Part shown: positions 37,814 through 39,778 of the stretch, in pieces | How positions within the stretch are numbered: position 1 is the stretch's first letter | Layout: the number at the start of each line of letters is the position of its first letter | NCBI RefSeq assembly: GCF_041886205.1 | Contig: NZ_CP169029.1 | DNA from: Escherichia coli | GTDB lineage: Bacteria; Pseudomonadota; Gammaproteobacteria; Enterobacterales; Enterobacteriaceae | Length of the DNA stretch: 64,000 nt | Direction: 5' to 3' (one strand) | Notes under the pieces: model-generated | The model's database searches: none | Told to the model about the DNA's origin: nothing | Seen by the model: only the letters and a program-made list of their open reading frames with translations | Made by a program: the position numbers and the translations under genes

Positions 37814-39778
37814 GTGAGCATGGATATAAGCGATTTTTATCAGACATTTTTTGATGAAGCGGACGAACTGTTGGCTGACATGGAGCAGCATTTGCTGGTT
37901 TTGCAGCCGGAAGCGCCAGATGCCGAACAATTGAATGCCATCTTTCGGGCTGCCCACTCGATCAAAGGAGGGGCAGGAACTTTTGGCTTCAGCGTTTTGC
38001 AGGAAACCACGCATCTGATGGAAAACCTGCTCGATGAAGCCAGACGAGGTGAGATGCAACTCAACACCGACATTATCAATCTGTTTTTGGAAACGAAGGA
38101 CATCATGCAAGAACAGCTCGACGCTTATAAACAGTCGCAAGAGCCGGATGCCGCCAGCTTCGATTATATCTGCCAGGCCTTGCGTCAACTGGCATTAGAA
38201 GCGAAAGGCGAAACGCCATCCGCAGTGACCCGATTAAGTGTGGTTGCCAAAAGTGAACCGCAAGATGAGCAGAGTCGCAGTCAGTCGCCGCGACGAATTA
38301 TCCTTTCGCGCCTGAAGGCCGGGGAAGTCGACCTGCTGGAAGAAGAACTGGGACATCTGACAACGTTAACTGACGTGGTGAAAGGGGCGGATTCGCTCTC
38401 GGCAATATTACCGGGCGACATCGCCGAAGATGACATCACAGCGGTACTCTGTTTTGTGATTGAAGCCGATCAGATTACCTTTGAAACAGTAGAAGTCTCG
38501 CCAAAAATATCCACCCCACCAGTGCTTAAACTGGCAGCCGAACAAGCGCCAACCGGCCGCGTGGAGCGGGAAAAAACGACGCGCAGCAGTGAATCCACCA
38601 GCATCCGTGTAGCGGTAGAAAAGGTTGATCAATTAATTAACCTCGTCGGCGAGCTGGTTATCACCCAGTCCATGCTTGCCCAGCGTTCCAGCGAACTGGA
38701 CCCGGTTAATCATGGTGATTTGATAACCAGCATGGGGCAGTTACAACGTAACGCCCGTGATTTGCAGGAATCAGTGATGTCGATTCGCATGATGCCGATG
38801 GAATATGTTTTTAGTCGCTATCCCCGGCTGGTGCGTGATCTGGCGGGAAAACTCGGCAAGCAGGTAGAACTGACGCTGGTGGGCAGTTCCACTGAGCTCG
38901 ACAAGAGCCTGATAGAACGCATTATCGACCCGCTGACCCACCTGGTACGCAATAGCCTCGATCACGGTATTGAACTGCCAGAAAAACGGCTCGCCGCAGG
39001 TAAAAACAGCGTCGGAAATTTAATTCTGTCTGCCGAACATCAGGGCGGCAACATTTGCATTGAAGTGACCGACGATGGGGCGGGGCTAAACCGTGAGCGA
39101 ATTCTGGCAAAAGCGGCCTCGCAAGGTTTGACTGTCAGCGAAAACATGAGCGACGACGAAGTTGCAATGCTGATATTTGCACCAGGCTTCTCCACGGCAG
39201 AGCAGGTCACCGACGTCTCCGGGCGCGGCGTCGGCATGGACGTCGTTAAACGTAATATCCAGGAGATGGGCGGTCATGTCGAAATCCAGTCGAAGCAGGG
39301 GACTGGCACTACGATCCGCATTTTACTGCCGCTGACGCTGGCCATCCTCGACGGCATGTCCGTACGCGTTGCGGATGAAGTTTTCATTCTGCCGCTGAAT
39401 GCTGTTATGGAATCACTGCAACCCCGTGAAGCCGATCTCCATCCACTGGCCGGCGGCGAGCGGGTGCTGGAAGTGCGGGGTGAATATCTGCCCATCGTCG
39501 AACTGTGGAAAGTGTTCAACGTCGCGGGCGCGAAAACCGAAGCCACCCAGGGAATTGTTGTGATCTTACAAAGTGGCGGTCGCCGCTACGCCTTGCTGGT
39601 GGATCAATTAATTGGTCAACACCAGGTTGTGGTTAAAAACCTTGAAAGTAACTATCGCAAAGTCCCCGGCATTTCTGCTGCGACCATTCTTGGCGACGGC
39701 AGCGTGGCACTGATTGTTGATGTCTCCGCCTTGCAGGCGATAAACCGCGAACAACGTATGGCGAACACCGCCGCCTGA
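37814..39778 (+). CDS. cheA: chemotaxis histidine kinase CheA (long form; internal start for CheA-S at 38105)
   Basis: GTG at 37814 ([20 protein letters not shown]...) giving 654 aa; in-frame ATG at 38105 is codon 98. Confidence 0.95.

Follow-up and report, generated by a model that had tools for sequence, protein, structure and literature searches.

The known internal start of cheA at codon 98 in an Escherichia coli genome and its conservation in sampled Enterobacterales

Introduction

Where within cheA does translation of the short chemotaxis protein CheAS begin, and what on the messenger marks that place for the ribosome? The gene is a classic example of one bacterial gene that gives rise to two proteins. 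cheA carries two alternative initiation codons (PMC2716512); CheAS is initiated at the ATG of codon 98, is abolished by the mutation M98L and is dispensable for chemotaxis (PMC7696710). For the site in K-12, PMC7696710 cites Smith & Parkinson 1980 and Kofoid & Parkinson 1991. Upon change of the ribosome-binding site (RBS) of the long form, CheAL, CheAS is still produced from its endogenous RBS, and because CheAS is made from an RBS of its own, total CheA is only moderately altered; likewise, CheAS-YFP is expressed from constructs having only the endogenous internal RBS (PMC2716512). The che genes are translationally coupled (PMC2716512). CheAS is without the phosphorylation site and forms homodimers as well as dimers with CheAL. 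It also binds CheZ, whose phosphatase activity is thereby enhanced or localised, and the ratio of AL to AS goes from 4:1 to 1:1 as the cells grow (PMC3676780, PMC2673030, PMC1447658). CheA also serves as a textbook N-terminal proteoform (PMC11005335). The existence of two proteins, the need for codon 98 and the part played by CheZ are taken here from this literature (PMC7696710, PMC2716512, PMC3676780, PMC2673030, PMC1447658).

In the text of the Ribo-RET preprint the only known internal starts named are infB, clpB and mrcB/mcrB, and the string cheA has 0 occurrences in the main text (bioRxiv 10.1101/520783). A full-text literature search returned no match combining cheA, internal start and ribosome profiling.

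Results

The window, meaning the whole stretch of 64,000 nt analysed here, is E. coli chromosome and covers the flhDC-motAB-cheAW-tar-tap region. The gene order motA-motB-cheA-cheW-tar is present, and the site lies in the chemotaxis kinase gene cheA of the motAB-cheAW operon. A 701-nt query around the site matched, at identity of at least 95%, about 5378 of 5426 complete E. coli genomes (5376-5378), which were labelled cheA and motB in every case. In a strain that is 100% identical over the query stretch, RefSeq places cheA at 6115-8079 of the matched locus L001, corresponding to 37814-39778 of the window, with flhDC, motAB, cheW, tar, tap and cheR as neighbours. The features on which the argument rests are these:

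36883-37809, plus strand: motB open reading frame, from the ORF list.
37803-37809, plus strand: GAGGTGA, the Shine-Dalgarno (SD) sequence of the long-form start, start(L); anti-SD duplex of -10.2 kcal/mol; it overlaps the motB stop TGA at 37807-37809.
37814-39778, plus strand: cheA long reading frame (CheAL), 654 aa, GTG start, from the translation and the RefSeq annotation of the identical stretch.
37955-37957, plus strand: CAC codon of His48, within AAHSIKGG and inside Pfam Hpt 8-100; the phospho-acceptor of P1/Hpt, present in CheAL only.
38081-38094, plus strand: CTGTTTTTGGAAAC, codons 90-94, the block of lowest synonymous variation (of 33 sequences, CTG in 29, TTT in 32, TTG in 23, GAA in 29).
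38096-38100, plus strand: AAGGA, SD-like element of start(S), 4 nt before the ATG; predicted duplex with the 16S 3' end of -5.4 kcal/mol.
38105-38107, plus strand: ATG of codon 98, start(S), the CheAS initiation codon, from sequence and translation; the short CDS of MG1655 begins at the corresponding ATG.
38105-39778, plus strand: CheAS reading frame, 557 aa (654-97), with frame and stop common to CheAL.
CheA residues, Pfam domains: Hpt 8-100; CheY-binding 161-223; H-kinase_dim 261-324; HATPase_c 372-508; CheW 514-640, all five above cut-off.

Two in-frame codons, GTG 37814 and ATG 37820, could head the long frame. Codons are numbered here with GTG 37814 as codon 1, not the ATG, as RefSeq does for strain 720632 and MG1655, and the published codon 98 numbering of the CheAS start agrees with this choice (PMC7696710). 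In Yersinia, Rahnella, Rosenbergiella and some others the Val-Ser codons at the start of cheA are absent; the start there must therefore be ATG, and 'codon 98' would correspond to their codon 96. Since GAGGTGA of start(L) overlaps the motB stop, translational coupling of motB and cheA is suggested.

With this numbering the ATG at 38105 is codon 98 of cheA, as the preliminary description had it: (38105-37814)/3 = 97. It stands in the sequence CTG TTT TTG GAA ACG AAG GAC ATC ATG CAA GAA CAG. The same description held that the short product is devoid of the phospho-accepting histidine, and the coordinates bear this out, His48 (37955-37957) lying 50 codons before ATG 98. Because that codon is upstream, a product begun at 38105 has no His48, and given that Hpt spans residues 8-100, a product from codon 98 is missing almost the whole phosphotransfer domain. 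Residues 1-131/140 are matched by solved P1 structures of CheA from E. coli and Salmonella.

We find that 38105 coincides with the start of a short CDS in the K-12 reference genome, in agreement with its earlier identification as the known second initiation site and with the literature (PMC7696710). The MG1655 RefSeq record (NC_000913.3) lists two CDS for cheA (b1888), 1973360-1975324 and 1973360-1975033 (NP_416402.2); the short one comprises 1674 nt, that is 557 aa plus stop, and begins 291 nt into the long CDS with ATGCAAGAACAG. From -30 to +15 of ATG 38105 the window equals MG1655 (45 nt, no difference). Over the whole of cheA 10 of 1965 nt differ, none before codon 259, and the resulting changes are N259S and K484E. 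Thus 38105 is almost certainly start(S) of cheA, and two in-frame initiation sites on the motAB-cheAW mRNA lead to CheAL and CheAS. The internal start itself is not new, and the K-12 annotation includes it. PGAP-annotated genomes (L001, NZ_CP025842.1) have a single cheA CDS, whereas only the curated K-12 record (NC_000913.3) has a separate CDS for the short isoform.

Is the site conserved, as had been proposed for the window? Within the species the claim holds, as the K-12 comparison above indicates, and is trivial, since the site was itself defined in E. coli. Of 5378 E. coli genomes, 5371 carry the 61 nt at 38075-38135 unchanged, while for three neighbouring 61-nt windows the corresponding counts are 4665/5378, 4634/5122 and 3611/5378; as a few inherited SNPs drive such counts, this invariance is suggestive only and statistically weak. 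Across other Enterobacterales the ATG part of the claim stands and the AAGGA part does not. Species-representative genomes were scanned with a degenerate DNA pattern for an 11-residue peptide, yielding at least 120 loci, and among the matches listed 33 Enterobacterales genes or copies (the window included) were usable for an ungapped codon alignment. No Salmonella locus occurs among the matches listed (at least 120 loci). At the codon aligned with codon 98, 33/33 of these Enterobacterales have ATG. AAGGA precedes it in three of the 33 only, namely the window, L085 (Escherichia) and L020, and is missing from the other 30. Most of the 33 have AAAGATATT before ATG 98; the 30 without AAGGA show GAAACN AAA GAY ATY ATG, with an anti-SD duplex of -3.3 kcal/mol, or else GGAGAG farther upstream, the latter in Yersinia, Rahnella and one Pluralibacter copy. 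AAGGA is missing there because codon 95 is AAA, as the comparison of window positions 38096-38104 with L004-L118 shows for 30/33 Enterobacterales among the matches listed.

Long and short CheA are reportedly co-expressed in other Enterobacterales, an observation said to be that of McNamara & Wolfe 1997. Given that 30/33 Enterobacterales are without AAGGA and that such bacteria reportedly make CheAS too, this motif cannot by itself account for ribosome binding. Synonymous variation was computed as amino-acid-corrected pairwise synonymous differences in 11-codon windows over the first 130 codons of the 33 Enterobacterales sequences. The ratio of observed to expected is lowest, at 0.69-0.78, in the windows whose centres are codons 88-96, directly upstream of start(S). 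By column permutation a window so low has p of about 0.03; the effect is modest and the sequences are phylogenetically related. It is possible that the CTGTTTTTGGAAAC block represents an SD-independent part of the ribosome-binding region of start(S), and as such it would contribute to initiation there.

Ribosomes could also reach start(S) mainly from start(L) or from motB, by coupling or re-initiation, and not through independent 30S entry. The weak SD of most Enterobacterales (-3.3 kcal/mol among the matches listed) and the translational coupling of the che genes (PMC2716512) would fit such a route, yet the cheA frame has no stop before codon 98, so that classical termination-reinitiation is unavailable, and CheAS-YFP is expressed with the endogenous internal RBS only (PMC2716512). 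Given these last two points, initiation at start(S) probably occurs by independent 30S binding, and we regard coupling as the main source of CheAS as very unlikely.

The preliminary description had advised looking for an SD-like sequence upstream of 38105, and AAGGA was found at 38096-38100 (-9 to -5). The match is of ordinary strength and alone not beyond chance: 8 of the 49 internal in-frame ATG, GTG or TTG codons of cheA (~16%) have a duplex of -5.4 kcal/mol or better. Local structure is slightly favourable. The energy needed to open the region from -18 to +12 at codon 98 is predicted at 9.6 kcal/mol, where background positions have 14.1 +/- 4.1, which puts codon 98 at the 13th percentile within the gene, and the site is A/U-rich, with a local GC of 0.40 vs 0.51 for the region. 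Predicted mRNA accessibility was also considered as a cross-species mark of codon 98 and was rejected as weak and inconsistent; in the 33 sequences among the matches listed the mean at codon 98 is 0.46 vs 0.41 on average, only ~1 SD above, and its rank varies between species from 1 to 124 of 140.

A further in-frame ATG lies at codon 81 (38054), preceded by GAGGTGAG (window 38041-38056) and predicted to be more structured than start(S). Might the short isoform, or an additional third one, begin there? The SD-like GAGGTGAG gives a duplex of -9.1 kcal/mol vs -5.4 at codon 98, GAGG being likewise followed by a gap of 4 nt, and for this reason SD strength alone was rejected as an identifier of start(S). 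The opening energy is in turn higher at codon 81, 13.2 vs 9.6 kcal/mol, and the sum of opening and SD energies is similar for the two codons. Sequence features alone thus do not single out ATG 98, and the assignment of start(S) rests on the experimentally defined K-12 locus. Met81 is found in only 25/33 Enterobacterales among the matches listed, with Leu in the rest, and both RefSeq and the literature place the start at codon 98 and describe two forms only (PMC7696710). On conservation and literature codon 81 was rejected as the CheAS start, and initiation there, whether for CheAS or for a third isoform, appears highly improbable.

Outside the Enterobacterales, position 98 of CheA is L, I, V or M among the matches listed; many Halomonadaceae and others read KDML, with Met at 97, and some non-enteric lineages have Met at 97 or 98. 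Since the position is hydrophobic in distant CheA, conservation of Met98 is no proof of initiation and could be partly structural. We give next to no credence to the view that ATG 98 is an ordinary methionine codon of P1 helix D with a chance SD-like neighbour, short CheA being a proteolytic product of CheAL: the hydrophobic position in distant homologues, the Met at 97 or 98 in some non-enterics and the equal or better SD-like matches at ~16% of internal start-like codons would be in its favour, but K-12 has a second CDS annotated in RefSeq, the synonymous constraint directly upstream is unexpected under purely protein-level constraint, CheAS from its own RBS persists after change of the upstream RBS (PMC2716512), and proteolysis as the source of CheAS is rejected on the published result that M98L abolishes it (PMC7696710).

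Several further observations concern the surroundings of the site. In strain E1 (L124, NZ_CP195951.1, 3615-7374) an IS1-flanked inversion that carries the remaining cheA and cheW interrupts cheA close before start(S), at about window position 38073; the leftover is annotated as 'Hpt domain-containing protein'. flhD (34932-35291, 119 aa) is intact in the window and annotated as frameshifted in strain 720632, which is identical at cheA. In the uspC-flhD spacer (window 34162-34931) no IS insertion was found; some strains have IS1 in the same region. The window lacks, at about 22100-26000, an island of ~10.7 kb present in strain 720632 (L122, 11364-22312, from tRNA-Leu to yecA), which contains IS elements, a group II intron RT, TIR-domain genes, a Hok/Gef gene and a restriction endonuclease fragment; between the tRNA cluster and cheA there are ~16 kb in the window vs ~26.7 kb in that strain. 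Three RNAs were matched by Rfam:

54391-54698, plus strand: MicL sRNA, full-length match (RF02654, 370 bits); comparison with an annotated strain puts it in the cutC region, as another gene-nested product.
40322-40399, minus strand: C0465 RNA (111.6 bits), antisense in the cheW-tar intergenic spacer.
58633-58675, minus strand: ES036 (CssrF) sRNA (45.5 bits, just over the gathering score).

Discussion

The production of the two forms can be pictured as follows. Ribosomes at GTG 37814, with its strong SD GAGGTGA, make CheAL, 654 aa with His48, whereas de novo ribosome binding at the internal site (AAGGA at -9 to -5, a stretch of 40% GC and ATG 38105) would give CheAS. The short form is devoid of residues 1-97, that is of nearly the whole Hpt four-helix bundle including His48, and keeps the P1 tail and P2-P5. 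Because the bundle with His48 is missing, CheAS itself is not phosphorylatable. It nevertheless dimerises with CheAL or with itself and enters receptor arrays, and its exposed N-terminal remnant binds CheZ, thereby concentrating CheY-P phosphatase at the array.

E. coli and most Enterobacterales differ in the nucleotides that precede the start. E. coli reads ACG AAG GAC ATC, whereas ACC AAA GAT ATT prevails in the order (among the matches listed) and is also what the outgroups Yersinia, Pectobacterium, Hafnia and Erwinia have. A combined reading, which we put forward tentatively and consider on balance doubtful, is that AAGGA might be derived in the Escherichia lineage, that enteric internal initiation might proceed mainly via a conserved non-SD element (the CUGUUUUUGGAAAC block together with an A/U-rich context), and that three adjacent synonymous changes might have raised the CheAS:CheAL ratio in Escherichia.

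Routine annotation does not show the internal start of cheA, and the finding at 38105 matters only as correct annotation. What seems mildly new, as judged from the aligned genes, is that the ATG is common to the sampled Enterobacterales and the AAGGA of E. coli is not shared by most of them. This contrast leads to a small testable question, namely what drives internal initiation and what sets the CheAL:CheAS ratio in other enterics.

Compared with known systems, the window is closest to start(S) and CheAS of E. coli K-12 (b1888, NP_416402.2), having in common the gene, codon 98, the 45 nt around it, the 557 aa and the operon context; nothing differs at the site, and the 10 nt and two amino acid changes of the window cheA (N259S, K484E) lie far downstream. 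The cheA genes of other Enterobacterales resemble that of E. coli in the ATG at the aligned codon (33/33 sampled, among the matches listed), in the peptide LFLE(T/S)KDIMQ(E/D)QL and in a Cys at aligned position 120 (E. coli numbering); unlike E. coli, 30/33 have AAAGAYATT before the ATG, with a duplex of -3.3 vs -5.4 kcal/mol. infB, with IF2 alpha and beta, clpB and mrcB are, like cheA, single ORFs with two in-frame starts whose short isoform is without the N-terminal domain (bioRxiv 10.1101/520783; PMC11005335), yet they are other genes with other functions.
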